Positions 26,702 through 54,807 of a stretch of 64,000 bases of DNA are shown here, piece after piece. The stretch comes from Nitrospirota bacterium (GTDB taxonomy: Bacteria > Nitrospirota > JACRHJ01). The first letter of the stretch is position 1, and the number at the start of each line of letters is the position of its first letter. The stretch lies in contig JACRHJ010000013.1 of assembly GCA_016212105.1 (NCBI GenBank), positions 46,782-110,781 on the forward strand, in the 5' to 3' direction. The position numbers and the translations under genes are program-made. The notes under the pieces were generated by a model. That model was given only the letters and a program-made list of their open reading frames with translations. It searched no databases and had not been told where the DNA came from.

Positions 26702-27079
26702 CTACTTCTTCACAAGCGAGCTGACCAGCTTGAGCAGCTCGGCCGTCTGTATGGGCTTCGAGAGGTATGCGTTCGCGCCGAGCGCGAGGCCCTTCTTCCT
26801 GTCCTCTTCCGCGCCCTCGGTCGTGATTATTATTATGGGTATCTCCCTGTACTGGTCGTTGCCCCTGATGAGCGAGACGAGCTTCAGGCCGTCCATGATG
26901 GGCATGTTGATGTCTGTAAGGATAAGGTCGAACTTCGCCGTCGAGAGCTTCTTGAGCGCGTCTATGCCGTCCGAGGCCTCGATTATCTTCGAGCCGTGCA
27001 CCCTCTTCAGGGCGAACGATATGAGCTGCCTCATGGTCGGTGAATCCTCAACTACAAGAAAATGAATATCGGGCATCAC
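26702..27079 (-). CDS. cheY: CheY-like single-domain response regulator
   Basis: HFLVVEDS...DLILTDINMP..DG...K motifs; 125 aa. Confidence 0.85.
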   Translation of the reverse strand: MMPDIHFLVVEDSPTMRQLISFALKRVHGSKIIEASDGIDALKKLSTAKFDLILTDINMPIMDGLKLVSLIRGNDQYREIPIIIITTEGAEEDRKKGLALGANAYLSKPIQTAELLKLVSSLVKK

Positions 27080-27103
27080 GTCCTCCGTAAAGTTTAACCG
27101 GGC

Positions 27104-28003
27104 TTACTCGCCGGCGGGTTTGTCCTTCATCAGCTCCAAAAAGCTCTGTATGGTTACAAGCTTCCTCTCGGACTGGGAGTACAGCTTCGACGAGAATATA
27201 GCCGTCGCCGCGTGCCCCGCGAGCATGGAGAACAGCTCGTAGTCCACGTCCGTGAAGCTCGGCTTCTGGAGGAGCAGCTTGTATATGACTATCACGCCAA
27301 TGACGTGCTCCTTTATCTGGAGCGGTATGCAGACTATCGGGTTTTGCAGGTCGTCGCCCGGCACGGAGGAGATGTCCTCCTCGAAGAAGCTGTCGCCGGA
27401 GAGGGCGACGGAGCCTATCCGCCCCTCGCCGATGGGCACGGCCGGCATGTCCTCGATGGGTATGCCCTCGGTGGCCACGGCGGTCAGGACGTTGGTCTTC
27501 TCGTCCATGAGCATGACCGCGAACCTCTCGGCGCCGACCAGGTTCATTATGATCTCGAGGACGGTCTTGACCGCCTCGCCGAAGTCGAGCGTGGAGTGGA
27601 GCTGGTAGCTCGCAACGTAGAGGTTGGCGAGGTTGTTATTCTCCATCTCGACCTCGATGTACTTCTCGGCGAAGTCCTTGTTCTCCATCTCGACCTCGCG
27701 GTAGCGCTCCATCAGGCGGCGGTTCTCCTCCTCGAGGACGGCGACCTTGTCCTGGAGCGGCTTCAGGTTGCCCGGGCCGCTGGTCCTTATCATCCGGTTT
27801 TCCTCTTCGAGCTGGACCACCTTGAACCGGAGCTTCTCGTTCTCCTTCAGGACCTCCTGGGTGAACTCCTCACCCTTCCTGAACACCTGGAGGAACTCCT
27901 CCGCCTTGTTCTTGATGTGGTTGAACCCGTCCTTCCCGTCTTTCTGGTCCACAACTGCCTCCCTCTTATCGTCCGAATAAAATATCAGTCTCTTTGTCAG
28001 CAA
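27104..28003 (-). CDS. Coiled-coil plus GAF-domain protein of the chemosensory cluster
   Basis: N-terminal heptad-rich region (LEEENRMIR...LEEENRRLMERYREVEMEN) and a C-terminal GAF-like domain. Confidence 0.65.
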   Translation of the reverse strand: MLTKRLIFYSDDKREAVVDQKDGKDGFNHIKNKAEEFLQVFRKGEEFTQEVLKENEKLRFKVVQLEEENRMIRTSGPGNLKPLQDKVAVLEEENRRLMERYREVEMENKDFAEKYIEVEMENNNLANLYVASYQLHSTLDFGEAVKTVLEIIMNLVGAERFAVMLMDEKTNVLTAVATEGIPIEDMPAVPIGEGRIGSVALSGDSFFEEDISSVPGDDLQNPIVCIPLQIKEHVIGVIVIYKLLLQKPSFTDVDYELFSMLAGHAATAIFSSKLYSQSERKLVTIQSFLELMKDKPAGE

Positions 28004-29070
28004 CAGGTCTTTATCAGCTCGTCGGCCATCATGCCGAGCGGCAGGACGTGGTCCACCGCGCCCGACTTGACCGCCTCCTTGGGCATGCCGTAGATGACGG
28101 CCGTCTCCTTGGACTCGGCGAACGTAACCCCGCCCGCGCCCTTTATCGAGACGACGCCCTCCGCCCCGTCGTTACCCATCCCGGTCAGTATAACTCCGGC
28201 CGTCTTCCCGCCGTAACAATGCGCGGCGGACGTCATCATCACGTCTATGGAAGGCGCGTACTTGTCGGACGGCTTTATGTCGCGGAGTACCACCCTGACG
28301 CTGCCGTGCGCGCGCTCGAAGGCCATGTGGCTCCCGCCGGGGCAGATGAGCGCGCGACCGGGGAACACGAGGTCCCCGTGCTGGGCCTCCTTCACCTCGA
28401 GCGCGGACAGCTTGTCGAGCCGCTCCGCGAAGAACCTGGTGAAGTTGGCGGGCATGTGCTGTGACACCGCGACCGCCGCGGGGAAGTCCTTGGGCAGCTT
28501 TGTGAGTATCGCCTGGATCGCGGGCGGCCCGCCGGTGGACGCGCCTATGGCCAGCATCTCGTACCTGCCGCACGCGGCCGCCTTGTCGGCGCCCATCCGT
28601 GGCGGAGGCATGCCCGCGGCCGGCTTCTCCCTCGCCACCTGTTCGAGGAGGGCGACCGAGTTGCTCACCCGCTTCATCTCGACCGGGGCGAAGGTCTTTA
28701 CCTTTGTCAGCAGCTCCGCGCGCAGGTCCTCCATGCTCATGCCCGGCCCGACCGGCTTGGGCAGGAAGTCGACCGCGCCGAACTCGAGCGCGCGTATAAC
28801 GCTCTTGTCGTCCGCGCGCGAGCTGACGACCAGCACCGGCAGCGGCATGGACTTCATCAGCCAGCGCAGGAACGTGAACCCGTCCATCCTCGGCATCTCG
28901 AGGTCGAGCGTGATGAGGTCCGGCTTGAGCCTGACCACCCGCTCTATGGCCTCCTCGCCGTCCGCGGCAGTCCCCACGACGTCCACGTAGGGCGACGAGT
29001 CGAGCATCTTGGACAGGACGTCCCTGTTGTAGGCGGAGTCGTCCACGACGAGGACTTTTATGATTTTCAA
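27997..29070 (-). CDS. cheB: Chemotaxis response regulator protein-glutamate methylesterase CheB
   Basis: N-terminal REC (VLVVDDSAYNR...DLITLDLEMPRMDG). C-terminal methylesterase (GASTGGPPA, H, VILTGMGNDGAEG). Confidence 0.9.
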   Translation of the reverse strand: MKIIKVLVVDDSAYNRDVLSKMLDSSPYVDVVGTAADGEEAIERVVRLKPDLITLDLEMPRMDGFTFLRWLMKSMPLPVLVVSSRADDKSVIRALEFGAVDFLPKPVGPGMSMEDLRAELLTKVKTFAPVEMKRVSNSVALLEQVAREKPAAGMPPPRMGADKAAACGRYEMLAIGASTGGPPAIQAILTKLPKDFPAAVAVSQHMPANFTRFFAERLDKLSALEVKEAQHGDLVFPGRALICPGGSHMAFERAHGSVRVVLRDIKPSDKYAPSIDVMMTSAAHCYGGKTAGVILTGMGNDGAEGVVSIKGAGGVTFAESKETAVIYGMPKEAVKSGAVDHVLPLGMMADELIKTCC

Positions 29071-29104
29071 TTTATGCTGCCTTCTGTAGGGGCCGGAAAA
29101 ATGC

Positions 29105-29300
29105 CGGCCCTCGTTGATTCTGGTTTATGTAGCTGCCCGATTCATCGGGCGTTTTTAATAGCGCCCACAACTGAGCGGGTTACAACTGTTTGTCACCCCC
29201 GTGCAAACGGGGGTCCATTTTGACGTTATTCATGAAAATGGATTCCCGCTTTCGCGGGAATGACGATATCGAGAGTTGGCGCGGGAACTATCCCTGCCAA
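29105..29300. repeat. Intergenic mosaic (O, B, A)
   Basis: ctgcccgattcatcgggcg; gtcacccccgtgcaaacgggggtcc; ggattcccgctttcgcgggaatgac. Confidence 0.8.
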
Positions 29301-29309
29301 CACGCCCCC

Positions 29310-30194
29310 CTATCGTCCGTCCCGGCAGATGGGAGCGCCGACCCCGACTTTGGCCGGCTTCTGGTAGACCATGTCGTTCGTCAGGTGCACCAGCTTGAAC
29401 GCCGCCGATATGTTCATCAGAGACTCGGCGTGGCCGAGCAGGAGGTACCCGCCGGGCACCAGCTTGTTGTAGAACGTCTCCACCAGCTTCTTCTTCGAGT
29501 CCATGTCGAAGTAGATTATAACATTTCGGCAGAAAATCAAGTCAAAATCTTTCAGGAAGCTCAGTTTGTACGGGTCGAACAGGTTGAGGTAGCTGAAGCT
29601 CACCATCTTCCTCACCTCGTCCGCTATCTTGTAGTTCCCCGGTGAGTCCTCCTTGAAGAACCTGGCCAGCCGCCTGTCGTCGGTCGTGCGGAACGCGCTC
29701 TTCTTGTAAATCGCGCGCCTTGCCGAGCCGAGGACCTTCTGGTTTATGTCGCTCCCTATTATCTCTATGTCCCAGCCTGGGCAGTAGCCCTTCTCCATCA
29801 GGAGCATGGCTATGGTGTACGGCTCCTCGCCGGTGGAGCAGCCGGCGCTCCATATCCGGAGCGTCCGGTCTTCCTTCCTCTTCGCTATCTCCGGTACTAT
29901 CTCGTCCGTGAAGGCCTTCAACTGCGCCTCCTCCCGGAAGAAGTACGTCTCGTTCGTCGTGAGCGAGTCTATTACCTCGACCAGCTCCTCCTCCTTCCTG
30001 CGGTCGTACGTCAGGAAGTGGTAGTAGTCCTTGAAGCTCTTGAACTGGTGGAGGCGCACCCTCCTCGTGAGACGCCGCTGGAGGAGGTACTTCGAGTTGT
30101 CGTCGAAGTACATGCCGCAGTAGTCCCTTATATAATCCCTGAGGAGGCGGAACACGTCCTCGGGAAGGTCCATCAGGTCTTCCTGAAAAAGCAT
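29310..30194 (-). CDS. cheR: Chemotaxis protein methyltransferase CheR
   Basis: ETYFFRE..., SAGCSTGEEPYTIAML, FDLIFCRNVIIYF. Confidence 0.9.
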   Translation of the reverse strand: MLFQEDLMDLPEDVFRLLRDYIRDYCGMYFDDNSKYLLQRRLTRRVRLHQFKSFKDYYHFLTYDRRKEEELVEVIDSLTTNETYFFREEAQLKAFTDEIVPEIAKRKEDRTLRIWSAGCSTGEEPYTIAMLLMEKGYCPGWDIEIIGSDINQKVLGSARRAIYKKSAFRTTDDRRLARFFKEDSPGNYKIADEVRKMVSFSYLNLFDPYKLSFLKDFDLIFCRNVIIYFDMDSKKKLVETFYNKLVPGGYLLLGHAESLMNISAAFKLVHLTNDMVYQKPAKVGVGAPICRDGR

Positions 30195-30198
30195 CGGT

Positions 30199-32184
30199 TC
30201 ACCCTTCGAGGAACTTCTTCGCCGTCTCCCTTACTATCGCCTCGTCCGGGGAGGCAAGGACCCCCCCGAGCAGTTCCCTGTAGCCCGGCACGCCGAGCGT
30301 ACCTATCGCCTCGACCGCCGCGAGCCTGACGCTCCAGTCCGGGTCGGCGAGGAGCGCGGAAAGTTCCGCCGTGAGGTCCGCCCCTGGGTAGTTCACGAGC
30401 GCGCCGGCCGCGGCCTTCCTTATCTCCGGGTCGGCGTCCCCGAGCGAGAGCTTCAGGGCGTCCAGCGCGCCGGGGCTCTTGGTCTCGCCGATGGCCTCTA
30501 TAGCGGCTATCTTTACCGGGCCGTAGGAATCCCTCAATAGCGGCATCAGCCCCTCGACCGCCTTGGGGCTGCCGGTCGCGGCCAGGCCGCGCGCGGCGGA
30601 CGCCCTGACCCAGGCGTCCACGTCCTTTATGAGCAGCATGAGCGGCTCGACGGCAAGCTCCGAGCCGGACGCCGAAAGCGCGTTGACCACTGCGAGCCGG
30701 ACGTCCGGGTCCTCGTCGGTGACGGCGGTCAGTATGCCCTTCACCGCCTTGTCCGCCCCGCACCTGGCGAGCGACGCCACGGCCGCCTTCCTTACGTCAG
30801 CCTCCTCGTCCCTTACCAGGCCGGTCAGGAGGTCGTATGCCTCCGGGCCGTCCATCATGCCAGCGAGGGCGGCCACGTTCCTCCGGAAGCCGGGGTCGTC
30901 GTCCCTCGCAAGCTCCGGCAGGTGCGCGGCAAGCTCCGGCCCGGCAAGCATGCCGAGCGTGCTTATCGCCTCCTCCTGCACGTCCTCGTAGTCGTCCTTG
31001 AGGAGCCTCAGCACCGGCCCGACCGCCCTACGGTCCCCCAGCTGCCCGAGCGCCCGTGCGGCCGCGCTCCTCGTATGTCCGTTCTCGTCGTCTATGAGCG
31101 GGATGAGGTAGTCCACGGCGCGGACGTCTCCGGACTTGCCGAGCACGTAGGCGGCCACCATGCGGACGACGCTTTCCTCGTCCGCGAGCAGGGACAGGAC
31201 CGGGTCCACCCCGTCCTTCGAAATCTCGTATATAGCCTCCGCTGCCGCGTCGCGCGCGCCTTCGTAGGGCAGGAGCCTGGCGAGCGCCTCGACCGAGGTC
31301 TTGTCACGCACCGCGCCGAGGAGGCATGCCGCGGCCGTCCGAAGCTCGTCGTCCTCGCCATCCAGGCAGGAGACGATGAAGTCCAGCCCGTCCCGGCCGA
31401 GCGTCCCGGATATGGAAGCCGACGTCCCGGGCTTGTCCGCCGACGCCTTCCATATGCGCGCGAGGCCCTTTATCGCCGTCTCGCGTATGACCGGGGCAGG
31501 GTCTGTGAGCGCCTCGGCAAGCGTCGGGAGCGCGGACTCGCCGCCTATCTTTCCGAGCGCCTCCACTGCGGCCTCTCTGAGGTACCTGTCCTTCGCGGCC
31601 TCTATAAGCGGGCCCACGGCGCCCTTTTCTCCCATCTCTCCGAGTGCGGCGGCGGCATTGAACGCGAGCCACTGGTCCTCGGTGCGTAGCAGCTCCACGA
31701 GCCGCCCGGATGCCTCGGCGTACTTCATCTTCCCCAGGTACTCGGCGGCCGCGGCGCGCACGTTCACGTCCTCGTCGTCGAGCGCGGCCATCAGCGCAGG
31801 CCCCCCGCAAGGGTCGCCTATCTCGCCGACTATGTCCACGATGAACTTCCTGACGTCCGCGTCCGCCTCGGCGAACCTCGCGGACAGTGCGTCTGCCGCG
31901 TGCGGGCCCATCTTGATGAGCGCCTCGGCGGCGGAGTTTCGCATGCCCGCGTTGTCGTCTGAATACAGCGCCCTGTAAAGCCCCTCGAACGCAAGGCCCG
32001 GGTCGAGCCTCAGGATGCCGTCCACCGCGGTCTTCCTGACGCGCCAGTCGGGGTCGCCGATGGCCTTCAGGAGCGGGGCGGCGGCCTCTTCCTGGCCGCA
32101 GTCCATCACCGCCAGGACCGCCTGACGCCTGACCTCCGGGTCGCCGTCATCGAGCATCGCGAGGGCGTCTCTCTCGTTTTCCAA
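30199..32184 (-). CDS. HEAT-repeat protein (PBS-lyase-type HEAT repeats) of the chemosensory cluster
   Basis: About 20 tandem ~31-aa repeats (D..VR..A..ALG.IG...A...L..LL.D). Separated by 4 nt from cheR. Confidence 0.85.
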   Translation of the reverse strand: MENERDALAMLDDGDPEVRRQAVLAVMDCGQEEAAAPLLKAIGDPDWRVRKTAVDGILRLDPGLAFEGLYRALYSDDNAGMRNSAAEALIKMGPHAADALSARFAEADADVRKFIVDIVGEIGDPCGGPALMAALDDEDVNVRAAAAEYLGKMKYAEASGRLVELLRTEDQWLAFNAAAALGEMGEKGAVGPLIEAAKDRYLREAAVEALGKIGGESALPTLAEALTDPAPVIRETAIKGLARIWKASADKPGTSASISGTLGRDGLDFIVSCLDGEDDELRTAAACLLGAVRDKTSVEALARLLPYEGARDAAAEAIYEISKDGVDPVLSLLADEESVVRMVAAYVLGKSGDVRAVDYLIPLIDDENGHTRSAAARALGQLGDRRAVGPVLRLLKDDYEDVQEEAISTLGMLAGPELAAHLPELARDDDPGFRRNVAALAGMMDGPEAYDLLTGLVRDEEADVRKAAVASLARCGADKAVKGILTAVTDEDPDVRLAVVNALSASGSELAVEPLMLLIKDVDAWVRASAARGLAATGSPKAVEGLMPLLRDSYGPVKIAAIEAIGETKSPGALDALKLSLGDADPEIRKAAAGALVNYPGADLTAELSALLADPDWSVRLAAVEAIGTLGVPGYRELLGGVLASPDEAIVRETAKKFLEG

Positions 32185-32475: not shown

Positions 32476-34449
32476 CTAAACCAGCTTGTCCCTCACCGCG
32501 GTCAACATCGTATCGTCGCCCAGCGCCTTCGGGACGTGCCCGCAGCCGAGCTCGGCACGCCTCCTGTCGGAGGCCTCGTCCAGCTGGTTCACGAAGATTA
32601 TGTGTATGTCCCTAGTCGCCGGGTCGTTCTTGAGTATGCTCGCGAAGTCCATACCGTCGAGGTCAGGAAGCGCCGCGTCTATGATTACGAAGCCCGGCAG
32701 CGTCTCACGCGCGAGCCCCAGCGCGGCCGTGCCGCTATACGCCGCCACTACCCTGAACCCGGCCGACTCGAACGTGCGCCTGCGGGCCGCGAGAGTGTCA
32801 GGGTCCGTGTCCACGAGCATTACCGTATTGGTGCTCATGGTCTCCGCCTCGCCCTCGACCGGCACGATCGCGGGCTTCGACGAGGCCTCCGGGGACGCGA
32901 CGAGCGGCCTTGGCAGGCTCATGACGAACCGCGCGCCCGCTCCGCCGTGGCTGGTCGGGCTCTCGGCCCAGATCCTGCCCTCGTGTTCCTTGACTATGGC
33001 CCTGGAGATAGCGAGCCCGAGCCCGCTCCCGCCCCGCCTCCTCGTGGCGGACATGTCCACCTGGTAGAACCTGTCGAATATGCGGTCGAGCTTGTCCGCC
33101 GGTATGCCCGCGCCCTCGTCCTCGACGGTCAGCCTGACCTCGTCCTCAAGGACGCTCGTGATGACCCTTACCCTGCCGCCGGGGCTGGAGAACTTAATCG
33201 CGTTCCCTGCGAGGTTGGTTACCACCTGTTCGAGCTTCTCCCTGTCGCCCAGGACGGTCAGCGGGCCGTCCGGGCAGGAGACCTCGACGGACACGCCCGA
33301 CTGCCTGGCTATGACGCTCGTGGACTTCACGACGCCGCGCGCGAGCTGGTTCAGGTCTATCCGCGTGAACCTTATATGCCCCCCGCCCTCCTCCATCCTC
33401 GAAAGGTCGAGCAGGTTCGTTATCAGGTTTATCAGACGGTCGGTGTTCTGCTCCGCTATCTTGAGGAACTCGCGCCTCGTCTCCGCGTCCTCTATATCGC
33501 TCTCCATCAGGAGGTTTATCGCGCCCTTGATGGATGTGAGCGGGGTGCGCAGCTCGTGGGAGACGGTGGAGACGAAGTTGGTCTTCATCTCGTCCACCTC
33601 CCTTTCCTTCGTGATGTCCTTGAAGGTGACGACCCGGCCCTTCATGCCGCCGGACTCGTCCCTGATGGCCGAGGACAGCCTCCTGAGAACCCTCCGGTAA
33701 GGCCTGACCAGCGTCACTACGAACGACGTCTCGGTCTCCGGGCTGGACGACACCGCCATGTACTTCTTCAGGAACTCGCCGGAGTCCTCGACCCGCTCGG
33801 AGAGCTTGTCCACGAGCGTCCTGACGTGCTCGCCCCTCGCCTGCTCCTCCCTGACGCCGAATATCTCCTCGGCCTCCGGGTTCATGAGGATCACCCGCTC
33901 CGACGCGTCGAGCGCCAAGATGCCGTCCCTGATCGAATGGACTATCGTGTCCGTCTGCACCTTGCCGGCCTTCAGCTCCTGGTTGGCCTCCTCCAGCCGG
34001 AAGGCCATGTCGGTCACCCACTCGTTCATGTGCTGGAGCGACCGGGCCGTCTGGCGGGACTCCTCGGCCGACTCGGTCAGCCTCGCGGTCAGGCCCTCGG
34101 CCTCCTTCCGGGAGGCGTCGAGGCTCTCGATCTTTTCCTTCAGGCTTGCCGCCATCTCGTTGAAGCCGGCCGCCAACGCGGCCAGCTCCCCCGGAGACCC
34201 GACCTCCACCCTGTGGCCGAGGTTGCCCGAGGAAAACTCGGCCGTGCCCCGGACAAGCTCCGCAATCGGCTTCGATACCCAGCCCGCTATCCAGCCCGCG
34301 GCGAGTATCCCGAGCAGGAACGCGGCCAGCGCGGCCGCGAGGGCCTGCCAGAAGCCGCCGTACAACGCCACGGCGCCGACCAGCGCCCCTACAAGGAGGA
34401 CGGTCAGCGATATGTACAACGACAGCCTGAGCCTGAGGGTGTCCTTCAT
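32476..34449 (-). CDS. Hybrid sensor histidine kinase (2TM-HAMP-PAS-HisKA-HATPase_c-REC)
   Basis: HAMP (IAELVRGTAEFSSGNLGHRV). H-box SHELRTPLTSI; G-box GSGLGLAI. C-terminal REC (VMLVDTDPD...IIDAALPDLDG). Confidence 0.85.
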   Translation of the reverse strand: MKDTLRLRLSLYISLTVLLVGALVGAVALYGGFWQALAAALAAFLLGILAAGWIAGWVSKPIAELVRGTAEFSSGNLGHRVEVGSPGELAALAAGFNEMAASLKEKIESLDASRKEAEGLTARLTESAEESRQTARSLQHMNEWVTDMAFRLEEANQELKAGKVQTDTIVHSIRDGILALDASERVILMNPEAEEIFGVREEQARGEHVRTLVDKLSERVEDSGEFLKKYMAVSSSPETETSFVVTLVRPYRRVLRRLSSAIRDESGGMKGRVVTFKDITKEREVDEMKTNFVSTVSHELRTPLTSIKGAINLLMESDIEDAETRREFLKIAEQNTDRLINLITNLLDLSRMEEGGGHIRFTRIDLNQLARGVVKSTSVIARQSGVSVEVSCPDGPLTVLGDREKLEQVVTNLAGNAIKFSSPGGRVRVITSVLEDEVRLTVEDEGAGIPADKLDRIFDRFYQVDMSATRRRGGSGLGLAISRAIVKEHEGRIWAESPTSHGGAGARFVMSLPRPLVASPEASSKPAIVPVEGEAETMSTNTVMLVDTDPDTLAARRRTFESAGFRVVAAYSGTAALGLARETLPGFVIIDAALPDLDGMDFASILKNDPATRDIHIIFVNQLDEASDRRRAELGCGHVPKALGDDTMLTAVRDKLV

Positions 34450-46871: not shown

Positions 46872-47773
46872 CCTTCCATAGCCAGGATGCGGCCTGTGTT
46901 TAGGAGTATCAGAAGCCGGTCGCCCATGCGGCCGACGCCCTGTATGTATTCCGCCTCGACGCCGCCTATAACGGCGGGCGGGGGCTCAATAGTCTTCATC
47001 GGGAACCTCACGACCCCCGTCACCTTGTCCACGATGACGCCCTGCGGCATGCCCTCCTCGGACACGACGACTATGCGCGTCGCCCTCGTGTGCTCTGCCT
47101 CATCGAAGCCGAGCCGCTTCTTTATGTCGAACACCGGGATTATCACGCCGCGAAGCGATATTATGCCCCTGACGAAGCCCGGCGCCCTCGGGACGTCCGT
47201 TATCTTCTGGAGCCTTATTATCTCGAGCACGTCCTCGACCCGGACCGCGTACTCCTCGCTGCCGAGACGGAACGCGAGGTACTCGACCACGGCGTCTCCG
47301 GTGTCGGCGGCCTCGCCCGGCCCGTCGTCCACCGCGTGAGGGGGCGGAGACGGAGGCTCGTCGGCGGGCGGCTGGTCCCAGACGGGCGGCTCTTCGGGGG
47401 CCTCGGGTCCCGGGACGTCTTCCATCAGATCGCCGGCGGCACCGAATGGCAGAGGCCCGTCCTCGGACAGCGTCAGGAACATGTCGCCAAGCTCCGCATC
47501 GTCTTCGGGCTCCGGCTCAGACTCCGGGACTGGCTCCGTCGCCTTTGCCTTCTTGCGCCCGGCACCGGCCTTTTTCCTTTTCGGTTTGGGTTCCGGCACG
47601 GCGGACGCCACGGGGACGGCGGGCGCACCGCCCTCGTCCGTCACCGGATCGGCTTCCAGCGACGTTGCCGTCTCTTCGGCGGACACTTCAGCCGGGCCGG
47701 CCGCGTCCTTCGCTGCCTCCGCTTCCGCGTCCTTCAGCCCCTTGGCCTTCTTTCTTATCTCAAGCAGGTCCAT
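46868..47773 (-). CDS. cheW: CheW-like protein with ~170-aa disordered Pro/Glu/Ala-rich N-terminal extension
   Basis: C-terminal CheW domain ([58 protein letters not shown]). Overlaps the MCP start by 4 nt. Confidence 0.85.
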
Positions 47774-48579
47774 CAGCCCTCCAGCCCGAGGTCACGGGCC
47801 GCGTCTTCCACCATGGCGCGCGCGACGACCGCCGCGCCAGCGCCCATCCCCGACAGAAGCGCCCCGGTGGCGATGTTGTTTATCACCCTCGGTATCCCGC
47901 CGGAGAACCTGTGTATCGCCTCGACAGCGCCCTCGTCGAAGAGGTCTTCCTCCCTGCCCGCGACCCCGGCCCTGTGCCGGAGGTAGCTCGCCGTGTCATC
48001 GAGGCCGAGCGGTTCGAGGTGGTAGCTCATCCCTATCCTCTGCCGGAGCGCGTCGTAGGCGGGCCGTTTCAGCCGGGCGCGAAGCTCCGGCTGCCCGATG
48101 ATGACCAGGGCGAGCAGGTTCCTGTCGTCCAGCTGGTAGTTCGTGAGGAGGCGTATCTCCTCGAACGTGTCCTTGCCGGGTATGAGCTGGGCCTCGTCGA
48201 CTATTACCACGGGGCAGACGCCCTCCTCGTACATCCTGTAAAGCGCGTCGTTTATCTGCTCCAGCAGGTCGGTCTTGAAATGCTTCGGCCTCTCGACGCC
48301 GAGCTGCCTGGCGAGCATCCGCAGGAGCTGGGCAGGGGAGAGCCTCGGGTTTATGATGAGGAGCGGCCTGTACGACTCGTCCAGCGAGTCGATAAGGGCG
48401 CGCGACAGCGTCGTCTTCCCGGAGCCTATGCCGCCGGTCAGGAGCGCGAAGTCACGCTCCTCGACCGCGTACTGGAGGCGCGCGAGCGCCTCCGCGTGGC
48501 CCTTGCTCATGAAAAGGAACGACGGGTCGGGCGTCTTCGAGAAACACCTCGCCTTCAGGCCGTAGAACTCCTCGTACAT
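47773..48579 (-). CDS. ExeA/GspA-like AAA ATPase (AAA_22, COG3267)
   Basis: ALLTGGIGSGKTTLSRAL (Walker A), VVIVDEAQ (Walker B); 268 aa. Embedded between cheA and cheW. Confidence 0.75.
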   Translation of the reverse strand: MYEEFYGLKARCFSKTPDPSFLFMSKGHAEALARLQYAVEERDFALLTGGIGSGKTTLSRALIDSLDESYRPLLIINPRLSPAQLLRMLARQLGVERPKHFKTDLLEQINDALYRMYEEGVCPVVIVDEAQLIPGKDTFEEIRLLTNYQLDDRNLLALVIIGQPELRARLKRPAYDALRQRIGMSYHLEPLGLDDTASYLRHRAGVAGREEDLFDEGAVEAIHRFSGGIPRVINNIATGALLSGMGAGAAVVARAMVEDAARDLGLEG

Positions 48580-48858: not shown

Positions 48859-50841
48859 CTACCTTCTCAGCGTCGCTTCGTCTATCAGCGCCTCGACGTC
48901 CAGCACAAGCACGACCTCGTTGTCGCCGAGCTCGGTCGCACCGGCTATGCCCGGCACGTTCTTCAGCTTCTCGCCTATGCTCTTTATGACTATCTCCTGC
49001 TGACCGACGAGCCTGTCCACCACAAGCCCGAGCCGCCTCTCCGCGATGCCGACTACTACCACGTAGAGGTAGTCGCCCGCGTCTGACTTGGGCAGGCTGA
49101 ACACGCGGTCGAGCCACAGAAGCGGCAGGGTCTCTCCCCTGAGCGAGACGACCTCGCGCTTCTCGATCGTGGTTATCCTGTCCCTCGTTATCATCAGGGA
49201 CTCTAGGACGGACGACAGCGGCACCGCGAACGTCTCGGCCGAGACGTCCACTATCAGCGCCTTGATGATGGCGAGAGTTATGGGCAGCGTTATCGTGAAC
49301 TTCGTCCCCACGCCTATCTCGGTCTCGACGTCTATCATGCCGGAGAGCCTTGATACGTTCTTCTTCACAACGTCCATCCCGACGCCGCGCCCGGAGACCT
49401 CGCTGACCTTCTCCGACGTGGAAAACCCGGGCATGAATATGAAGTCCATTATCTCGCGCTTCGACAGGACGTCCGACTCCTTTATAAGCTCCCTCTCGAC
49501 CGCCTTCCTCCTGACCTTCTCGTGGTCTATGCCGCCACCGTCGTCCTCGACGGTTATCACGACACGGTTCCCCTTGGGGAAGGCGTCCAGCCTGATGGTG
49601 CCCCTCTCCGGCTTGCCGCGCCTCGCCCTTACCTGGGCGGCCTCTATGCCGTGGTCTATCGAGTTCCGGATGAGGTGCATCAAGGGGTCGGACATGTCCT
49701 CGACCATCAGCTTGTCGAGCTCCGTGTCCTCGCCGGACATCTCGAGGTCTATGTCCTTGCCGACGTCGCCGGCGTACTTCCTGACCGCCTGGGTCAGCCT
49801 CGTGAATATCTGGCCGATGGGCACCATCCTGACCTCTATCACGCCCTCCTGAAGCTCGCCGAGCTTACGCTCGAACGTCCGGGTGGCCTTGTGGAGGTCC
49901 ACCGCGATGCCGGTGAAGCCGTGCAGGCCGCGCAGGTCTTTGCTAAGCTGGGATATTATGTTCTTGGAGAGCACCAGCTCGCCGACGATGTTCATCAGGT
50001 GGTCGAGCCGGCTAATGTCCACGCGGACGGTCTTCGACAGGCTCTTGATGGTCGGCGAGGCGGCCTCGGAGGCGGCCTTCTTCTCCTCCGCCTTGTACTT
50101 TATCTCTACGACCTCCGCGCCCAGGCCGCCGACTTCCTCGACCAGCCTGTCCATAGTGGACTTCGTGCCCATCAGGAGGTTGAACTCGATGCCCATGTCC
50201 GGGCTCATCCCGGAGGACGGGAGCGTGCTGATTATCTCGCCCAGGGACTTCAGCTTGTCGTTCAGCGCTGTCAGGTCCTTGTCGAAGGTCATAAGGTCGA
50301 ACCGGGCCTTGACGAGGAATATCCCGTTCTTCGCCTTTACGTTCTCCTTCAGGCGGTGCTCCTCGTACTCCGTCAGGACCGCGACCAGTGCCGGGTCTAT
50401 GGCAAGCTCGTCCACCGGCGACTTCTTGTCCGCCCCGCCGCCGCCCGTCATCGCGGCCTCTATCACGGCGGCGATGTCCGTGGTGTCCGCGCGCTCGAAC
50501 CCGCTCCGGCTTATGTCCTCGGACAGCTCCTTCAGCCGGTCGAGCGCCTGGAAGATGGCCTGCGTGACCTCCGGCGTGATGGGCACCTTGCCGAGCCGGA
50601 GCGCGTCCAACAGCGACTCGAGCTTGTGCGACAGGGTCGAGACACCCGTGAACCCGAACATGCCGGACAGCCCCTTCAGCGAGTGGACGCCCCGGAATAT
50701 CGCGTTCACCACGTCCGGGTCCACCGAGCCGGCCTCGACCATCGCCTCCATCTGGATGAGGTGCTGGTTGAGGTCCTCGAGTATGTCCTCGGCCTCGGCC
50801 AGGAACTCGCCTTTTGACCGTTCGTCTTTTTCTGACGCCAA
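48859..50841 (-). CDS. cheA: Chemotaxis histidine kinase CheA
   Basis: P1/Hpt (FRGVHSLKGLSGMFGF), dimerisation domain, HATPase (DDGGGID, GRGVGMDVV) and C-terminal CheW-like domain. TTG start 50841 with GGAGA 8 nt upstream. Confidence 0.9.
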   Translation of the reverse strand: MASEKDERSKGEFLAEAEDILEDLNQHLIQMEAMVEAGSVDPDVVNAIFRGVHSLKGLSGMFGFTGVSTLSHKLESLLDALRLGKVPITPEVTQAIFQALDRLKELSEDISRSGFERADTTDIAAVIEAAMTGGGGADKKSPVDELAIDPALVAVLTEYEEHRLKENVKAKNGIFLVKARFDLMTFDKDLTALNDKLKSLGEIISTLPSSGMSPDMGIEFNLLMGTKSTMDRLVEEVGGLGAEVVEIKYKAEEKKAASEAASPTIKSLSKTVRVDISRLDHLMNIVGELVLSKNIISQLSKDLRGLHGFTGIAVDLHKATRTFERKLGELQEGVIEVRMVPIGQIFTRLTQAVRKYAGDVGKDIDLEMSGEDTELDKLMVEDMSDPLMHLIRNSIDHGIEAAQVRARRGKPERGTIRLDAFPKGNRVVITVEDDGGGIDHEKVRRKAVERELIKESDVLSKREIMDFIFMPGFSTSEKVSEVSGRGVGMDVVKKNVSRLSGMIDVETEIGVGTKFTITLPITLAIIKALIVDVSAETFAVPLSSVLESLMITRDRITTIEKREVVSLRGETLPLLWLDRVFSLPKSDAGDYLYVVVVGIAERRLGLVVDRLVGQQEIVIKSIGEKLKNVPGIAGATELGDNEVVLVLDVEALIDEATLRR

Positions 50842-51172: not shown

Positions 51173-51550
51173 TCAGACCGTCACCCCCAGCACCTTCTTG
51201 ATAAGTTCCTGCAGGTCCTCGCCCTTGAACGGCTTGACTATGTAGCCCGAGGCCCCGAGGGCAAGGCCCCGCCTGCGGTCCTCCTCGCTCTTTTCGGTGG
51301 AGACCACGATGAGCGGTATGGACTTGTAGTTGGGGTGGCCCTTGACGAAGCTGATAAGCTCCAGTCCGTTTATGTCGGGCATGTTTATGTCGGTGATTAT
51401 CAGGTCGAACTGGTGGGACGGGAGCGCCTTCAGCGCGTCGAAACCGCTTCCGGCCTCATGGGTGACGAAGCCTGGCAGGGCCTCGACCGTCGCCCGGATG
51501 AGACCCCGCATCGCCTTCGAATCCTCTACTATAAGGACTTTCCTGGTCAT
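51173..51550 (-). CDS. cheY: CheY-like single-domain response regulator
   Basis: KVLIVEDS...DLIITDINMPDINGLE...K; 125 aa. Confidence 0.85.
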   Translation of the reverse strand: MTRKVLIVEDSKAMRGLIRATVEALPGFVTHEAGSGFDALKALPSHQFDLIITDINMPDINGLELISFVKGHPNYKSIPLIVVSTEKSEEDRRRGLALGASGYIVKPFKGEDLQELIKKVLGVTV

Positions 51551-51594
51551 TAAGCGCTCCCCGCCTGAAGGGTTTACCCCTTGTCAAGGTTGGA

Positions 51595-52827
51595 CTACGT
51601 ATTCTTTTCCTTCAGCCTCTCAAGTTCCATAATCTTTCTTTCGAGCAGGGCCTTCTCCATTGCGAGGCCCGCCTGGTACACGAATATCTCAAGGCCGGCG
51701 ATGTTCGGGACCGGCTTCCTGTCCGGGAGGTTGTCCCCGTACAGGAGCGCCACGACCCTGTCGTTGCTGACCAGGGGTATCAGGAAGAACTCCTCCGGCT
51801 CGCTGCCGCCCAGCTCCTTGACGAGGTATGCGTCCCACGCGGTGTGCGAAAACCTCCCGAGCATCGACCTCTTGTTGGCAACCACCTCCGTGAAGATGGA
51901 CTTCTCGGAGACCGGGACGCGTATCTGTCTTACCCTGTGGTCGGCTGAGGCCTCCTTCAGCTCTATGCCGAACTGCCCCAGCCCCTTTACGTCCTCGCGG
52001 GTGACCATGAACAGGACCGAGCGGTTCACGACCTCGCTCGCGTACCGGAGGACGAGGAGCGTTATCTCCGCGGTCGCGGTCGGGAACCTCAGCTCCTCGA
52101 ACATCGACTTCAGCGTGCTCATCTCGCGGGAACGGTCGAGGGCCGCCCTCTCCTCGCCGGAGACCTTCGTGGAGGACGGGGCCATGCCCTGCTCCTCCAG
52201 GAAGTCGGAGAACTCCGAGGCCGCCTTCTTCTTGGCGTTGTCCGGCGCGACCCTGGGCTCCGGGAAGGCCTCGACGGTCTGGGCCGCCTTGGCCTTCGCC
52301 GCAACCTTGCCGTCCCGCTTCTTCTCGTCCATCACCCGGGCGCCTTCCATCAGAAGGTACTCGGGGTTCAGCCCGGCCTTGAGCAGGAACTCCTGCGTCA
52401 CGACCTCTATCTTGTCGCCGGGCGTGACCTCGCCCAGGTCGAAGTTGAAGAACCCGTCCTCCCAGGAAAGCAGGGAGTAAATCATGTTCTCTATCTGGCC
52501 GCGGATCGTGTCCTCTAAGTCCTGCTGCCCGAGGTAGCCCATCTCGACCAGTATCTGGCCGAGACGGATCCCGCCGCCCAGCTTCTTCTGCGTGTCGAGC
52601 GCGCGGGTCAGGTCCCGTTCGTTTATCAGGCCCTTGGATATAAGTATGTTGCCGAGCGTGTCGCGCAGGTTGTCCGTCGCGGCCTGGATGACCTGGCCGT
52701 CCCTGAACACGACGACGGCGGCCCCGGCCTTGCTCTTCAGTACCAGGGTGCCGGTCTTCTTGCTCAGGCTTATTATCTGAAATATATCCGCAAGCGCCAG
52801 GTCTTCCAGACGCCCAACAAGGCTCAT
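51595..52827 (-). CDS. DUF4388-domain protein with C-terminal GAF-like region
   Basis: N-terminus MSLVGRLEDLALADIFQIISLSKKTGTLVLKS (the DUF4388 signature GxLxxhxLxDlhQ). 410 aa. Confidence 0.6.
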   Translation of the reverse strand: MSLVGRLEDLALADIFQIISLSKKTGTLVLKSKAGAAVVVFRDGQVIQAATDNLRDTLGNILISKGLINERDLTRALDTQKKLGGGIRLGQILVEMGYLGQQDLEDTIRGQIENMIYSLLSWEDGFFNFDLGEVTPGDKIEVVTQEFLLKAGLNPEYLLMEGARVMDEKKRDGKVAAKAKAAQTVEAFPEPRVAPDNAKKKAASEFSDFLEEQGMAPSSTKVSGEERAALDRSREMSTLKSMFEELRFPTATAEITLLVLRYASEVVNRSVLFMVTREDVKGLGQFGIELKEASADHRVRQIRVPVSEKSIFTEVVANKRSMLGRFSHTAWDAYLVKELGGSEPEEFFLIPLVSNDRVVALLYGDNLPDRKPVPNIAGLEIFVYQAGLAMEKALLERKIMELERLKEKNT

Positions 52828-52866
52828 AGACTTCCCCTGTCAAAGGTCGGTTTATAAAGATTTGTG

Positions 52867-52895
52867 ATTATATCACCCGTCAAACCGTTTGGCAA
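52867..52895 (-). promoter_or_regulatory. Putative sigma70 promoter (TTGCCA-17-TATAAT, minus strand) upstream of the DUF4388 gene
   Basis: Minus strand reads gTTGCCAaacggtttgacgggtgaTATAATcac. Confidence 0.35.
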
Positions 52896-52947
52896 CAATT
52901 TTGTACCTAAATATATGAGAAGTCTGGATAACGGGACGAGGCCGGTC

Positions 52948-54807
52948 TCATCGCCCCCGCCTTGCCTCAAGTTTCTCCATGAGCGCTGACGCGAGCCCCC
53001 TCTGCCCCTCGTCCGCGGCAAGGCCGAGCGCCTCCCCGGCTCGCGCAACCGCCTCGCCGAACATGCCGTTCTCTGCGTACAGGACGGCAAGGTTGTACGT
53101 CGTCTCGAAACCGGCCGGCGCGGCCTCGACCGCCGCCTCCATCTCCCTGAGCGCCTCAGCCCTCCGGCCGAGACCCCGAAGAGACATGGCGAGCATGTAG
53201 CGCGCCTCGGCGAAGCCCGGGCCGAGCCTGACCGCCTCCGCGAGTTCTCGCGCAGCTTCCCCGTACCGCCCCTCACGGTAGTAGACCTTGCCAAGGTTCA
53301 TGCGGCACTCGGCGCAGGCGGGCTTGAGCCGCACCGCCTCGGCGAACTCGGCCCCGGCCATGTCGGGCCTGCCCATCGCCAGGTAACAGGTGCCGAGGTT
53401 GTTGTGTGCCTTGTACGCCCTCTCGTCGTCCGGCTCCATGGCAAGCGCGCGGCTGAACTCGTCCACTGCCTCCTGGTACCGGCCCGCGTCGAGCAGCGCG
53501 GTGGCGAAATTGACATGCGCCCTCGCGTTGTGCGGAGACTTCCTGGCAACGTCGGCCCAGAGGTCGTAAGGCGTCGCCCAGACCGCGTTCCGGTTGTACG
53601 TAAGCAGCCCGAACAACAGGAGTACCGACACGGCGGCAGCGCGGCGAACGGCAGGCGCGTTTATCAGGCTCCAGCCGGCAACAGCCACGAAGCAGGCGCC
53701 GCCCGCCATCGGCAGGTACAGCCTGTACTCGACGGCGATGTCGGTTATGGGCACTATCACGGACTCAACAACGAAGCCGGCCAGGAACCACAGACCGAAG
53801 AGCGCAAGCTCCGGCCGGGCGCGCCGGAGCCTGTATATCCCCCACAGCATGAAGGCCGCAAGCGCGAGCCCGGCGACAGGAGCGGCCGTGGGCGACGTAA
53901 CGGCCGGAATAGAGTAGTCGGCGTTCTGGTTCACCGGAAACAGCAGCAGACGCGCGTACATCAGGAACGCGCCTGCCTCGGAGAGCCAGTAGGAAAGCAT
54001 GCCGTACTCCCAGACCGGCATCCTCGCGCCGCCCTCCGCATGGCCCCTGAGCGCGAAGTACAGGCCCGCCGCCGTGAGCATGACGGCATATACCGCCCCT
54101 GCCCGCATCCATCCGCGCCCGTCCGCGCGGGACTTCAGGCCCGGCAGTGTGTATACGAGGTCGTACACTGCGTACAATGCGAGGGCATTGAGCGCGATCT
54201 CCTTGGAGAACAGGCCAAACAGGAAGAGTACCGCGGACGATGCGGCCCATCCCCGCTCCGCGCCGTCCCTGTGGCGGATGAAGCAGATAAGCGACAGCAG
54301 GCAGAAAAACACGGCGAAGAGCGACGCGCGGCCCGATATGTAGGTCACGGCATGGGTCTGGACCGGGTGGAGCGCAAATAACGCTGCGGCGAACAGCCGG
54401 GCCGCAAAGCCGTCCCGATGTCCAACCCGACTCATCACCATGCCGGCGAGGACGAAGACGAGCAGCGAGTTCAGTATGTGCACGGCGAGGTTCAGCGCGT
54501 GCCAGCCCGCGACGTCATAGCCTCCGAGGGCGTAGCTCACCGCATAGCTGGCGAGCGTCATTGGGCGGTAGTGCGACCTGTCAGGCCTGTAGCTCGAAAG
54601 CGAGCTGTCCGTGAAGAAATGCGGGAGGTTGGAGATGTCCCGGATGTGCGGGTTGTCCAGTATCTGGTGGTTGTCGTCGTAATGGAACGCCGCGCCGAAT
54701 GTGTTGGAATACGCGAGCGCGCACAGGGCGGCGAGGACGATGACGGCGATGGCCGTCCTCGACGCGCCGGATATATTGCAGAGGCCTCTGGTAGCGTTAT
54801 CTGTCAT
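52948..54807 (-). CDS. Polytopic membrane protein with C-terminal TPR repeats (PMT/DUF1736-like glycosyltransferase-type architecture)
   Basis: About 11 predicted TM helices in the N-terminal 420 aa, then TPR-like repeats (AHVNFATALLDAGRYQEAVDEFSRALAMEPDD...). Confidence 0.65.
   Translation of the reverse strand: MTDNATRGLCNISGASRTAIAVIVLAALCALAYSNTFGAAFHYDDNHQILDNPHIRDISNLPHFFTDSSLSSYRPDRSHYRPMTLASYAVSYALGGYDVAGWHALNLAVHILNSLLVFVLAGMVMSRVGHRDGFAARLFAAALFALHPVQTHAVTYISGRASLFAVFFCLLSLICFIRHRDGAERGWAASSAVLFLFGLFSKEIALNALALYAVYDLVYTLPGLKSRADGRGWMRAGAVYAVMLTAAGLYFALRGHAEGGARMPVWEYGMLSYWLSEAGAFLMYARLLLFPVNQNADYSIPAVTSPTAAPVAGLALAAFMLWGIYRLRRARPELALFGLWFLAGFVVESVIVPITDIAVEYRLYLPMAGGACFVAVAGWSLINAPAVRRAAAVSVLLLFGLLTYNRNAVWATPYDLWADVARKSPHNARAHVNFATALLDAGRYQEAVDEFSRALAMEPDDERAYKAHNNLGTCYLAMGRPDMAGAEFAEAVRLKPACAECRMNLGKVYYREGRYGEAARELAEAVRLGPGFAEARYMLAMSLRGLGRRAEALREMEAAVEAAPAGFETTYNLAVLYAENGMFGEAVARAGEALGLAADEGQRGLASALMEKLEARRGR

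Follow-up and report, generated by a model that had tools for sequence, protein, structure and literature searches.

Congregation and electrokinesis of Shewanella oneidensis at insoluble acceptors require mtrBC/omcA, the Cache-domain MCP SO_2240 and the chemotaxis machinery (PMC5789149). In Geobacter, electrode colonisation depends on esnB and esnC, which encode a CheW and a CheA and have an ATPase gene between them (PMC5585712), and a link of the Esn system to c-di-GMP has been proposed. A HEAT-repeat protein, Cpc7, is the target of the single-domain CheY7 in the Che7 system of Myxococcus xanthus, as summarised in PMC11514114 (citing Darnell 2014). We found no earlier description in the literature of a chemosensory cluster fed by a porin-cytochrome wire such as the one reported here. 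It lies in a 64-kb stretch of DNA from an uncultured Nitrospirota bacterium (hereafter the window), where a decaheme cytochrome, a 679-aa barrel and an ABC_sub_bind protein are embedded among the receptor genes of a chemosensory cluster. From gene content and conservation we lean, slightly beyond an even chance, towards reading the decaheme/barrel pair as a putative sensory antenna of this pathway and not as a respiratory conduit.

The cluster consists of 18 co-directional genes on the minus strand (26702–52827) that encode CheA, two CheW, two CheY, CheB, CheR, three MCPs, a hybrid kinase and HEAT, GAF, AAA_22 and DUF4388 proteins in addition to the three embedded proteins. The Che pathway is complete and includes adaptation, with a Pfam match for each of CheA, CheW, CheY, MCP, CheR and CheB. 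All genes listed in a preliminary description of this DNA were recovered on the minus strand where it had placed them. It had counted 19 genes, of which we retain 18; the remaining one, encoding a membrane/TPR protein (52948–54807), was left out of the unit because its adjacency to the cluster is not kept in relatives and because it sits upstream of a promoter-like site. This sigma-70-like candidate (52867–52895, minus strand; TTGCCA-17-TATAAT with TG upstream) was identified by its match to the consensus (11/12 positions), is the best in the region and lies just 5' of the first gene of the cluster. The core genes are separated by gaps of 9–17 bp or overlap, and no flagellar genes are present within the 64-kb window.

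Read in the direction of transcription, the cluster opens with a DUF4388/PatA_N protein (51595–52827; PF14332, E 3.8e-32) that has a tandem MshEN-type c-di-GMP-binding motif (NF053729, 49.5 bits against a cut-off of 38) and a GAF-like C-terminus and is 67–73% identical in all related loci spanning its position. It is followed by a CheY-like single-domain response regulator (51173–51550; 76–86% identity in relatives) and a CheA with Hpt, dimerisation, HATPase and CheW-like domains (48859–50841; 68–79% identity). An AAA_22 (ExeA-like) ATPase (47773–48579) is encoded between cheA and the first cheW (46868–47773), which overlaps each neighbouring gene by 1–4 nt and whose product has an N-terminal extension of ~160 aa rich in Pro, Glu and Ala. 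Downstream of the wire and the two large receptors, the cluster continues with the second CheW (36415–36948, assigned by Pfam), a membrane-anchored MCP without a periplasmic sensor domain (34476–36161) and a hybrid histidine kinase (32476–34449; two TM segments, HAMP, PAS, HisKA, HATPase and REC), which was found in five related loci (L001, L004, L006, L008 and L017). The last five genes encode a 661-aa HEAT-repeat protein that is kept in relatives (30199–32184), a CheR methyltransferase (29310–30194), a CheB methylesterase with REC and CheB_methylest domains (27997–29070), a coiled-coil and GAF protein (27104–28003; 70–79% identity in relatives) and a terminal CheY-like response regulator (26702–27079; 85–87% identity).

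The cytochrome (42917–43888) passes the cut-off of TIGR03508, the DmsE/MtrA decaheme model (241.2 bits against 192.2), and its profile is collinear with MtrA (6R2Q_A; residues 53–326 on 63–327, E 1e-52). Against NF041028, the GSU2203/OmcK model, it scores 221 bits, under the cut-off of 325. It had been described as carrying ten CXXCH motifs; the number of heme motifs is indeed ten, but only nine are CXXCH and the tenth is a CX3CH (CLAKCH, residues 57–62). All heme motifs, including the CX3CH, and C24 are invariant among 36 relatives. Because C24, the cysteine of a VTGC lipobox, is invariant across the clade, the protein is a predicted lipoprotein. MtrA is a soluble periplasmic protein that is not lipidated, from which the window cytochrome would differ in this respect.

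The barrel gene (40861–42900) lies directly beside the decaheme gene with a gap of 16 bp. MtrB/PioB barrels are large, with 26 strands, and wide enough to sheathe the cytochrome. Profile HMMs, by which the preliminary description proposed to confirm this protein as MtrB/PioB, missed their thresholds: the barrel scores 39.7 bits against TIGR03509, for which 240 is required, and has no match to PF11854. Among 56 members of the wider barrel family, 35 match PF11854 at E <= 0.01 (best 4e-13) and 25 match TIGR03509, while NF041027, the GSU2204 model, matches 56/56 sampled members (best E 1e-52) and the window barrel itself at 76.9 bits, under the cut-off of 350. Neither a CXXCH nor a selenocysteine feature is found in the window barrel, and PDB sequences yielded no match to its profile. 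Based on fold, context and these weak family-wide matches, we regard it as distantly MtrB/PioB/GSU2204-like and as the partner protein of the decaheme.

Such a pair might be a true respiratory or lithotrophic conduit for Fe or Mn reduction or oxidation, as in MtrAB, MtoAB and PioAB, that is merely co-regulated, positioned or controlled by Che; the conduit would then receive information from Che, or the two would simply serve one lifestyle. The genuine membership of the cytochrome in the DmsE/MtrA decaheme family speaks for this, as does the induction of its nearest named relatives, GSU2203 (OmcK) and GSU2204, by iron oxide in Geobacter (PMC4070692). The 64-kb window, on the other hand, encodes no MtrC-like outer cytochrome, CymA/NrfH-type quinol dehydrogenase or periplasmic carrier, and no CXXCH-bearing ORF beyond the decaheme and one of the MCPs.

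Eleven distinct loci from Nitrospirota MAGs or metagenomes retain the order DUF4388-CheY-CheA-AAA22-CheW-(heme MCP)-decaheme-OMP-ABC_sub_bind-sCache MCP-CheW-...-HEAT-CheR-CheB-GAF-CheY, with OMP identities of only 34–51%. Synteny had been suggested as a check on the locus, and the porin-cytochrome pair is embedded in the che cluster across all 11. The same order at such low OMP identity argues that the arrangement is not due to chance. Fortuitous juxtaposition, by which an EET pair would have entered the che operon of one genome by chance or recent transfer, can point to a low-GC insertion at 24.7–26.7 kb that adjoins the cluster and indicates that the region can take foreign DNA. The GC of the pair is nevertheless the same as that of the cluster, and the order recurs not only in the 11 loci but in dozens more metagenomic loci; we consider this explanation extremely improbable and reject it on the synteny data.

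Among the 80 metagenomic loci with the most similar decahemes (54–70% identical; denominators vary by step), the OMP gene was next after the decaheme in 54/54 and ABC_sub_bind was next in 42/44, a transducer lay within 9 kb in 27/31 (25 MCP, 5 kinase, 3 both) and a CheA block lay upstream of the decaheme in 15/26. A wire combined with a sensor protein across ~100 related loci suggests that the wire is probably an antenna for redox outside the cell. Genes of this decaheme clade almost always precede a transducer, either a Cache MCP or a heme-bearing histidine kinase, and have no local respiratory partner, which supports a stronger case for sensing than the preliminary description had made. The pair or trio also occurs without an adjacent transducer in some relatives (L020, L028, L058 and L059); these exceptions count against the antenna reading and in favour of a conduit.

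The MCP directly upstream of the cytochrome (44004–46871) has only two TM segments, a HAMP domain and a long signalling hairpin. A CXXCH had been noticed in its periplasmic sensor, and this is borne out: the motif is at residue 143, between TM1 and TM2, and the sensor matches PF21563 (47.4 bits against 27) and is homologous to the Geobacter heme-c PAS sensors 3B42 (E 4.5e-11) and 3B47 (E 5e-7), with which the CXXCH is aligned. This heme MCP is present in the window and in 5/10 related Nitrospirota loci that span its position, and the CXXCH is retained in all five orthologues found. The second large receptor (36962–39859) has a periplasmic sCache_3_2 domain, HAMP and a long signalling hairpin. 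It is the module's invariant receptor, it always directly follows ABC_sub_bind, and a CXXCH is absent from all 31 related copies. It is this heme-less sCache_3_2 MCP, and not the heme MCP, that is the conserved partner of the wire. Both large MCPs end in a PhnD-like (Phosphonate-bd) domain that the preliminary description did not include and that is predicted to be cytoplasmic, since no further TM segment is present. The hairpins of all three MCPs have equal arms of about 226 aa, or ~32 heptads each, which by informal classification is nearer to class 64H; given their equal lengths, the three receptors should share one array with the two CheW and the CheA of the cluster.

The periplasmic ABC_sub_bind (COG2984) solute-binding-type protein (39869–40843) carries a signal peptide. 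Its conserved residues are polar (Y51, Q77, N88, R91, K92, E115, E172, D174, Q178 and N300) and include no Cys or His, and no ABC transporter genes occur near it in the window and the related loci examined. From these residues the pocket looks more like one for small-molecule binding than for redox chemistry. This opens an alternative in which ABC_sub_bind, together with PhnD-like proteins, would bind a solute or shuttle and dock on the Cache MCP or a kinase, like LuxP-LuxQ and TorT-TorS; the barrel would let the ligand in, and the decaheme would only set or exploit its redox state (e.g. of a flavin/quinone-type shuttle or a metal chelate). Besides the polar pocket devoid of redox residues and the missing transporter genes, it is favoured by the constancy of ABC_sub_bind, the most constant partner of the pair, and by the ligand-type sensor domain without heme of the invariant receptor. 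It leaves unexplained why a ten-heme MtrA-type wire, and not an ordinary porin, is constant in 54/54 loci, and the sequence suggests no ligand.

In other lineages, the trio of decaheme, barrel and ABC_sub_bind is joined to histidine kinases, which identifies it as a portable input module. These kinase-type modules (L014, L015 and six more) are stand-alone five-gene units amid housekeeping genes, with the kinase as sole catalytic output. In 8/8 cases the kinase bears a CxxCHH, at residue 89, in its periplasmic domain, whose fold is not related to that of the PAS heme sensor of the window MCP; two independent c-heme sensor domains thus occur on the same putative antenna. A rough NJ tree built from the decahemes intermingles the kinase-linked with the MCP-linked modules, indicating that the transducer class was swapped. 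The five-gene units contain no respiratory partner genes and no further CXXCH ORF. The modules add a second periplasmic SBP, a PhnD-like protein with a signal peptide, as a solute-sensing system might, but solute sensing does not account for a conserved c-heme motif in two unrelated periplasmic sensor domains, and we regard it as unlikely. A respiratory conduit is in our view decidedly unlikely: quinol dehydrogenase, periplasmic carrier and MtrC-type cytochrome are absent from both the 64 kb and the five-gene units, the pair travels with receptors of differing output classes but without any respiratory gene, and heme-bearing sensor domains adjoin it.

Under the antenna reading, an MtrA-like ten-heme lipoprotein would be threaded in an MtrB-like barrel, and this wire would equilibrate with the redox state of whatever the cell surface contacts, be it a mineral, an electrode, a partner cell or a shuttle. 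Its periplasmic end would be read by dedicated receptors, here the PAS-like MCP with one c-heme and the sCache_3_2 MCP. The heme MCP could plausibly do so by heme-to-heme electron transfer, and ABC_sub_bind is probably a co-receptor or adaptor for the sCache_3_2 MCP. A heme-to-heme relay is not the general mechanism, because the sCache_3_2 MCP is heme-less and the heme MCP is missing in about half of the close relatives. A ten-heme wire is also costly as a sensor, which counts against the antenna reading. Judging from gene content, CheA would phosphorylate the CheY proteins, with CheB and CheR providing adaptation. Probably the pathway controls an alternative cellular function, for example surface colonisation or a c-di-GMP-linked response via the DUF4388/MshEN, HEAT and GAF proteins, resembling Geobacter Esn. 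Redox-directed taxis had been put forward for this locus; the embedding of the wire in the che cluster is supported, but the output need not be taxis, as the DUF4388 and HEAT proteins, the Esn-like gene order and the REC-GGDEF carried by relatives speak for surface or biofilm behaviour at least equally. Surface or c-di-GMP-linked behaviour may be what the pathway governs in place of swimming taxis, and motility control is also possible.

Compared with MtrAB (6R2Q), MtoAB and PioAB, the window pair differs in several respects. The window barrel is under all curated MtrB/PioB thresholds. The window cytochrome is a predicted lipoprotein whose first heme motif is CX3CH, and no MtrC, CymA or PioC partner is encoded in the 64 kb. 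ABC_sub_bind is the constant third gene, with a receptor after it, and the role we propose is sensory, not respiratory. The sensor of the heme MCP is homologous to those of Geobacter GSU0582 and GSU0935 (3B47 and 3B42), but the window receptor adjoins a trans-outer-membrane heme wire and has a C-terminal cytoplasmic PhnD-like domain as its own feature. To our knowledge, GSU0582 and GSU0935 are orphan genes, and we know of no redox partner for them. In LuxP-LuxQ, TorT-TorS and FecA-FecR-type systems, an outer-membrane and/or periplasmic binding-type protein feeds an inner-membrane transducer. In place of the ligand-gated transporter of FecA-FecR-type signalling, the outer part in the window is a putatively cytochrome-filled barrel; both a TonB box and an anti-sigma factor are lacking.

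The closest curated models for the window pair are GSU2203 (OmcK) and GSU2204 of Geobacter sulfurreducens, although both scores are under the cut-offs. The locus tags of these two genes are 16–20 numbers from esnB/esnC, which we note as a lead and not as a result. By annotation, the Geobacter Esn/beta-group cluster (GSU2220–GSU2224) resembles the window cluster in its series of regulator, CheY, CheA, ATPase and CheW (PMC5585712, PMC8242959); the AAA_22 ATPase gene occupies the position of GSU2221, the 'ATPase' between esnC and esnB (PMC5585712), and both clusters have CheB/CheR and non-che genes. Beta-group clusters have been described as lacking mcp genes (PMC2577667), whereas the window cluster has three, and the Esn genes are annotated as 40H-associated, in contrast to the MCP arms of ~32 heptads in the window. 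No porin-cytochrome is reported inside the Geobacter Esn cluster. With Che7 of M. xanthus the window shares, by domain only, a HEAT protein in a che cluster; the inputs differ, Che7 as summarised in the above source being without cytochromes. The congregation of S. oneidensis follows the same proposed logic, in that outer-membrane cytochromes sense. There, however, the genes are scattered and the conduit used in respiration also serves as the sensor, whereas the window would provide a dedicated conduit hard-wired to receptor genes.

Domain searches on the gene calls of the window delineated a unit of 18 consecutive genes, all on the minus strand (26702-52827). In transcription order, the unit opens with a DUF4388/PatA_N protein carrying a tandem MshEN-type c-di-GMP-binding motif (NF053729, 49.5 bits, cut-off 38), followed by CheY, CheA, an AAA_22 (ExeA-like) ATPase, and a CheW with a long Pro/Glu-rich N-terminus (46868-47773). 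These genes precede a 955-aa MCP with a single CXXCH in its periplasmic, PF21563-matching domain (heme MCP, 44004-46871), a multiheme cytochrome (323 aa, 42917-43888), an outer-membrane protein (679 aa, 40861-42900), an ABC_sub_bind (COG2984) protein with a signal peptide (39869-40843), a 965-aa sCache_3_2 MCP (36962-39859), a second CheW, and a 561-aa MCP without a periplasmic domain (34476-36161). The remaining genes encode a HAMP-PAS hybrid histidine kinase, a HEAT-repeat protein (661 aa), CheR, CheB, a coiled-coil/GAF protein, and a second CheY. Genes and domains thus bear out, with corrections, a preliminary description of a chemosensory gene cluster with an embedded electron conduit. That description counted 19 consecutive genes, of which 18 stand; the nineteenth, a TPR/membrane gene (52948-54807), was placed outside the unit because it is not syntenic in relatives and sits upstream of a promoter-like site. 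The gene at 36962-39859 was also considered as a second kinase, which was rejected as the domain search identified an MCP. The N-terminal extension of the first CheW (~160 aa, 47290-47773) is Pro/Glu/Ala-rich and probably disordered, and extended CheW proteins (265-313 aa) are kept in relatives.

Packing is tight from the cytochrome to the second CheW (intergenic gaps of 9-17 bp), and the genes from the heme MCP through the ATPase overlap; five other gaps of about 240-330 bp could contain internal promoters. Of all promoter-like sites in the region, the best (52895-52867, TTGCCA-17-TATAAT with TG) is immediately 5' of the DUF4388 gene. Inside the unit, promoter and terminator scans yielded weak candidates only and do not settle the operon structure. 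The 239 bp that separate cheR and cheB contain a terminator-like hairpin (29242-29261, minus strand, 8 bp stem and T-rich tail), which may mark a transcript end or act as an internal attenuator. An Rfam scan of the whole window returned no riboswitch or RNA family at gathering score. Between the terminal cheY and a DUF3786 gene (23889-24710) is a low-GC stretch (24717-26676, minus strand, 0.52 versus ~0.62) of two genes, encoding a 453-aa AAA_15/AAA_21 (AbiEii/OLD-like) ATPase and a 215-aa protein without Pfam match; it looks like an inserted defence-type cassette, since the DUF3786 gene directly abuts the cluster in the related locus L003. About 7-10 kb from the cluster, a GAF-GAF-GGDEF diguanylate cyclase (15073-17271) and an sCache_3_2-HAMP-GAF-HisKA-HATPase-REC hybrid kinase (17447-20119), both on the plus strand, represent predicted extra c-di-GMP and Cache signalling capacity. 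The minus-strand ORF at 54970-55887 (305 aa), charged and of low complexity, is unlikely to be a real gene.

With 241 bits against a cut-off of 192, the cytochrome is accepted by the curated DmsE-family decaheme model, and a profile of 36 relatives matches the MtrA subunit of the solved Mtr complex (residues 53-326, E 1e-52). Its lipobox cysteine and all ten heme motifs are invariant in the 36 aligned relatives. The ten motifs agree with the preliminary description, which had taken all of them for CXXCH; nine are, and the first is a CX3CH (CLAKCH, residues 57-62, window 43705-43722), likewise invariant in 36/36. The proposed assignment of the outer-membrane protein to the MtrB/PioB family failed with the curated model (TIGR03509, 39.7 bits, cut-off 240), and the GSU2204-family model was also missed (76.9 bits, cut-off 350). 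Pfam gave a generic OMP_b-brl match and nothing more specific. A profile of 24 barrel homologues had no match among PDB sequences, and the tie of the barrel to MtrB in the PDB comparison comes from fold only. The AlphaFold model has ~24-25 strands (mean pLDDT 66.9, residues 170-679 mostly >80); in it, the N-terminal ~70 residues of the mature protein, acidic and of low complexity, are disordered. An exhaustive profile search recovered 518 cluster representatives out of 1.84 billion (194 at E<=1e-30), which puts the size of the barrel family at some 200-500 clusters at the 50% identity level. Among 56 sampled members, PF11854 matched 35 at E<=0.01, TIGR03509 matched 25, and the GSU2204 model matched every one. 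Strand count and these family-wide matches favour an MtrB-like barrel, and we place the window protein in a separate branch, of rather modest size, of the MtrB/PioB/GSU2204 superfamily; the protein itself scores below the curated family thresholds.

A word-indexed search with the barrel retrieved 24 homologues of 35-51% identity plus one 99% match, two of them assigned to a Nitrospirae MAG and all others from metagenome or run assemblies; a GTDB scan found seven loci, without exception in Nitrospirota MAGs. Across 11 distinct loci the genes between DUF4388 and the terminal CheY keep their order, apart from optional elements, which answers the proposed synteny check in the affirmative. A chance juxtaposition of the cytochrome-barrel pair and the che genes was rejected because of this conserved order. 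The syntenic loci differ in whether they have the hybrid kinase, the short MCP, a separate gene for a periplasmic PhnD-like protein, or a REC-GGDEF gene, which two relatives insert between ATPase and CheW. The window, L001, L003, L005, L006, and L017 have the heme MCP, and L004 and L009-L013 lack it; L008 starts at the cytochrome, so this position is not covered. Among syntenic loci the barrel evolves fastest (34-51% identity, compared with ~70% for the cytochrome and 68-79% for CheA), as expected if its loops are surface-exposed. Two che-linked loci, L037 and L047, have a second, tandem decaheme-like match immediately upstream of the main decaheme.

Homologues of the cytochrome numbered 1,636 at E<=1e-10, and the genomic contexts of about 100 loci of its clade were inspected. 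Neighbours were mapped by tblastn in the top 80 metagenomic loci, whose decahemes are 54-70% identical, and loci with enough flank were counted. A barrel followed the decaheme in 54/54 loci and ABC_sub_bind lay downstream in 42/44, while a transducer was encoded within 9 kb in 27 of 31 (25 with an MCP, five with a kinase, three with both) and the DUF4388-CheY-CheA-AAA22-CheW block stood upstream in 15 of 26. The G+C content of these loci ranges from 0.40 to 0.62; several lineages are therefore involved. Kinase-linked, MCP-only, and full-che contexts were interleaved in a rough neighbour-joining tree of the decahemes. Exceptions were loci with the pair only (L020, L059), loci with the pair and both binding proteins and no adjacent transducer (L028, L058), and one locus with its MCP upstream rather than downstream (L096). 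The nearest non-che-linked relatives among those looked up (L014, L015; decahemes 56-59% identical) are five-gene units surrounded by housekeeping genes and encode a decaheme lipoprotein, a ~655-aa barrel, ABC_sub_bind, a periplasmic PhnD-like protein, and a sensor histidine kinase. Synteny and these hundred or so loci make the coupling of the decaheme-barrel pair (the heme wire) to a chemosensory pathway real and more general than originally proposed.

The predicted periplasmic CXXCH of the MCP next to the cytochrome was confirmed: the sensor shares homology with two Geobacter heme-c sensors of solved structure (3B42 and 3B47), whose CXXCH aligns with its own, and the motif is kept in all five orthologues found. 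As a core receptor the heme MCP was not sustained, since it is missing from about half of the close relatives and thus dispensable there; the constant receptor is the sCache_3_2 MCP directly after ABC_sub_bind. The kinases of L014 (14833-16797) and L015 (14861-17101) have a ~140-aa periplasmic domain (residues ~31-168) with a single CxxCHH, which recurs in L033, L040, L064, L066, L074, and L087, with the motif at residue 89 in 8/8 module-linked kinase sensors. No Pfam model recognizes this domain, which is possibly an undescribed c-heme sensor family. Homology to the PAS-type heme sensor of the MCP was rejected for want of detectable similarity, and the two are therefore regarded as independent domains. 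The pair travels with receptors of any output class, and two unrelated c-heme sensor domains have been recruited beside this decaheme/barrel clade.

The hairpin tips of the three window MCPs fall at residues 471, 473, and 335, with arms of ~226 aa (about 32 heptads each); from these equal lengths, one shared array with the CheA and two CheW of the cluster is expected. Both large MCPs end, after the signalling hairpin, in a PhnD-like domain (Phosphonate-bd, E 1e-63 to 1e-65; C-terminal ~250 aa, 44004-44860 and 36962-37830) that is predicted to be cytoplasmic because the proteins have only two TM segments. The stand-alone PhnD-like homologues of related loci (23-29% identical) have signal peptides and are periplasmic, unlike the MCP-fused domain.

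On the observed gene content, homologies, and conserved linkage, the heme wire is most simply read as a sensory antenna. The MtrA-like lipoprotein would sit inside the MtrB-like barrel and convey external redox conditions to the periplasm, to be read there by dedicated receptors; we infer this complex and the direction and route of signal transfer. ABC_sub_bind may be the adaptor linking the cytochrome to the Cache domain, and the three MCPs would signal in one array with CheA and two CheW, with CheR and CheB providing adaptation. We tentatively propose, at slightly less than even confidence, an undescribed class of electroreceptor: a portable trans-outer-membrane antenna through which chemoreceptor arrays or histidine kinases would register the redox potential of partner cells or solid surfaces. 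Its most elaborate version seen would be that of the window, built into an 18-gene Che pathway. The antenna reading is weakest at its receptors: the heme MCP is dispensable, as noted, and the constant sCache_3_2 MCP lacks a heme motif in 31/31 copies. ABC_sub_bind conserves polar residues such as typically line a ligand pocket; it has no conserved Cys or His and was on that ground rejected as a heme or metal protein. Besides the adaptor role, these features would fit a small molecule as the true stimulus, one whose availability or redox state hangs on the wire; this alternative is unlikely overall. A conventional respiratory conduit merely co-regulated with che genes is improbable: neither the window nor the five-gene modules encode MtrC, a CymA/NrfH-type quinol dehydrogenase, or a periplasmic carrier, CXXCH-containing ORFs were limited to the decaheme and the heme MCP in the window, with no further ones in the modules, and the transducer class is swapped among related loci. 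Matches to DmsE/MtrA plus an MtrB-like protein in Nitrospirota and related MAGs are accordingly not automatic proof of iron respiration or oxidation capacity, which tools counting such gene pairs would score automatically. For the antenna reading, the locus defines a reconstitutable set (decaheme, barrel, ABC_sub_bind, heme or Cache sensor domain, and CheA) and offers an assay of kinase output versus extracellular potential.

No flagellar genes were found within the 64-kb window, and among inferred outputs we rank an alternative cellular function somewhat ahead of swimming taxis. Possible output proteins are the predicted c-di-GMP-binding DUF4388, HEAT-repeat, and GAF proteins. Geobacter sulfurreducens GSU2224-GSU2220 has the same order regulator-CheY-CheA-ATPase-CheW, an annotation-level match; there, esnB (CheW) and esnC (CheA) are needed for electrode colonization and not for Fe(III) oxide reduction (PMC8242959, PMC5585712). 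That cluster belongs to the 'beta group', for which extracellular matrix control has been suggested (PMC2577667). The window cluster departs from this group on two counts, since beta-group clusters have no mcp genes and go with 40H MCPs. In Myxococcus Che7, CheY7 acts on a HEAT-repeat protein (PMC11514114). Both likenesses are analogies drawn from gene order and annotation.

It has long been asked how bacteria detect electrodes and insoluble electron acceptors or donors. Work on Shewanella and Geobacter implicates respiratory cytochromes as well as chemosensory genes, yet these are genetically dispersed. The closest functional precedent is Shewanella, whose 'congregation' at insoluble acceptors needs mtrBC/omcA, the Cache-domain MCP SO_2240, and the chemotaxis machinery, with sensing by outer-membrane cytochromes as the proposed model (PMC5789149); there, the genes are dispersed and the respiratory conduit itself is the sensor. 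Here, wire, candidate adaptor, and receptors stand in a single operon-like unit, and the same antenna is joined to different transducers. Our literature search, of incomplete coverage, found no account of an MtrAB-type pair within che or two-component clusters and nothing relevant on COG2984/PF04392 as a sensor partner. The parts are members or relatives of known families (DmsE/MtrA, MtrB/PioB/GSU2204-like, GSU0582/0935-type heme sensor, Che); what appears new is that a dedicated porin-cytochrome module, constant in its ABC_sub_bind partner, is hard-wired to chemoreceptors or histidine kinases across the roughly 100 loci inspected.
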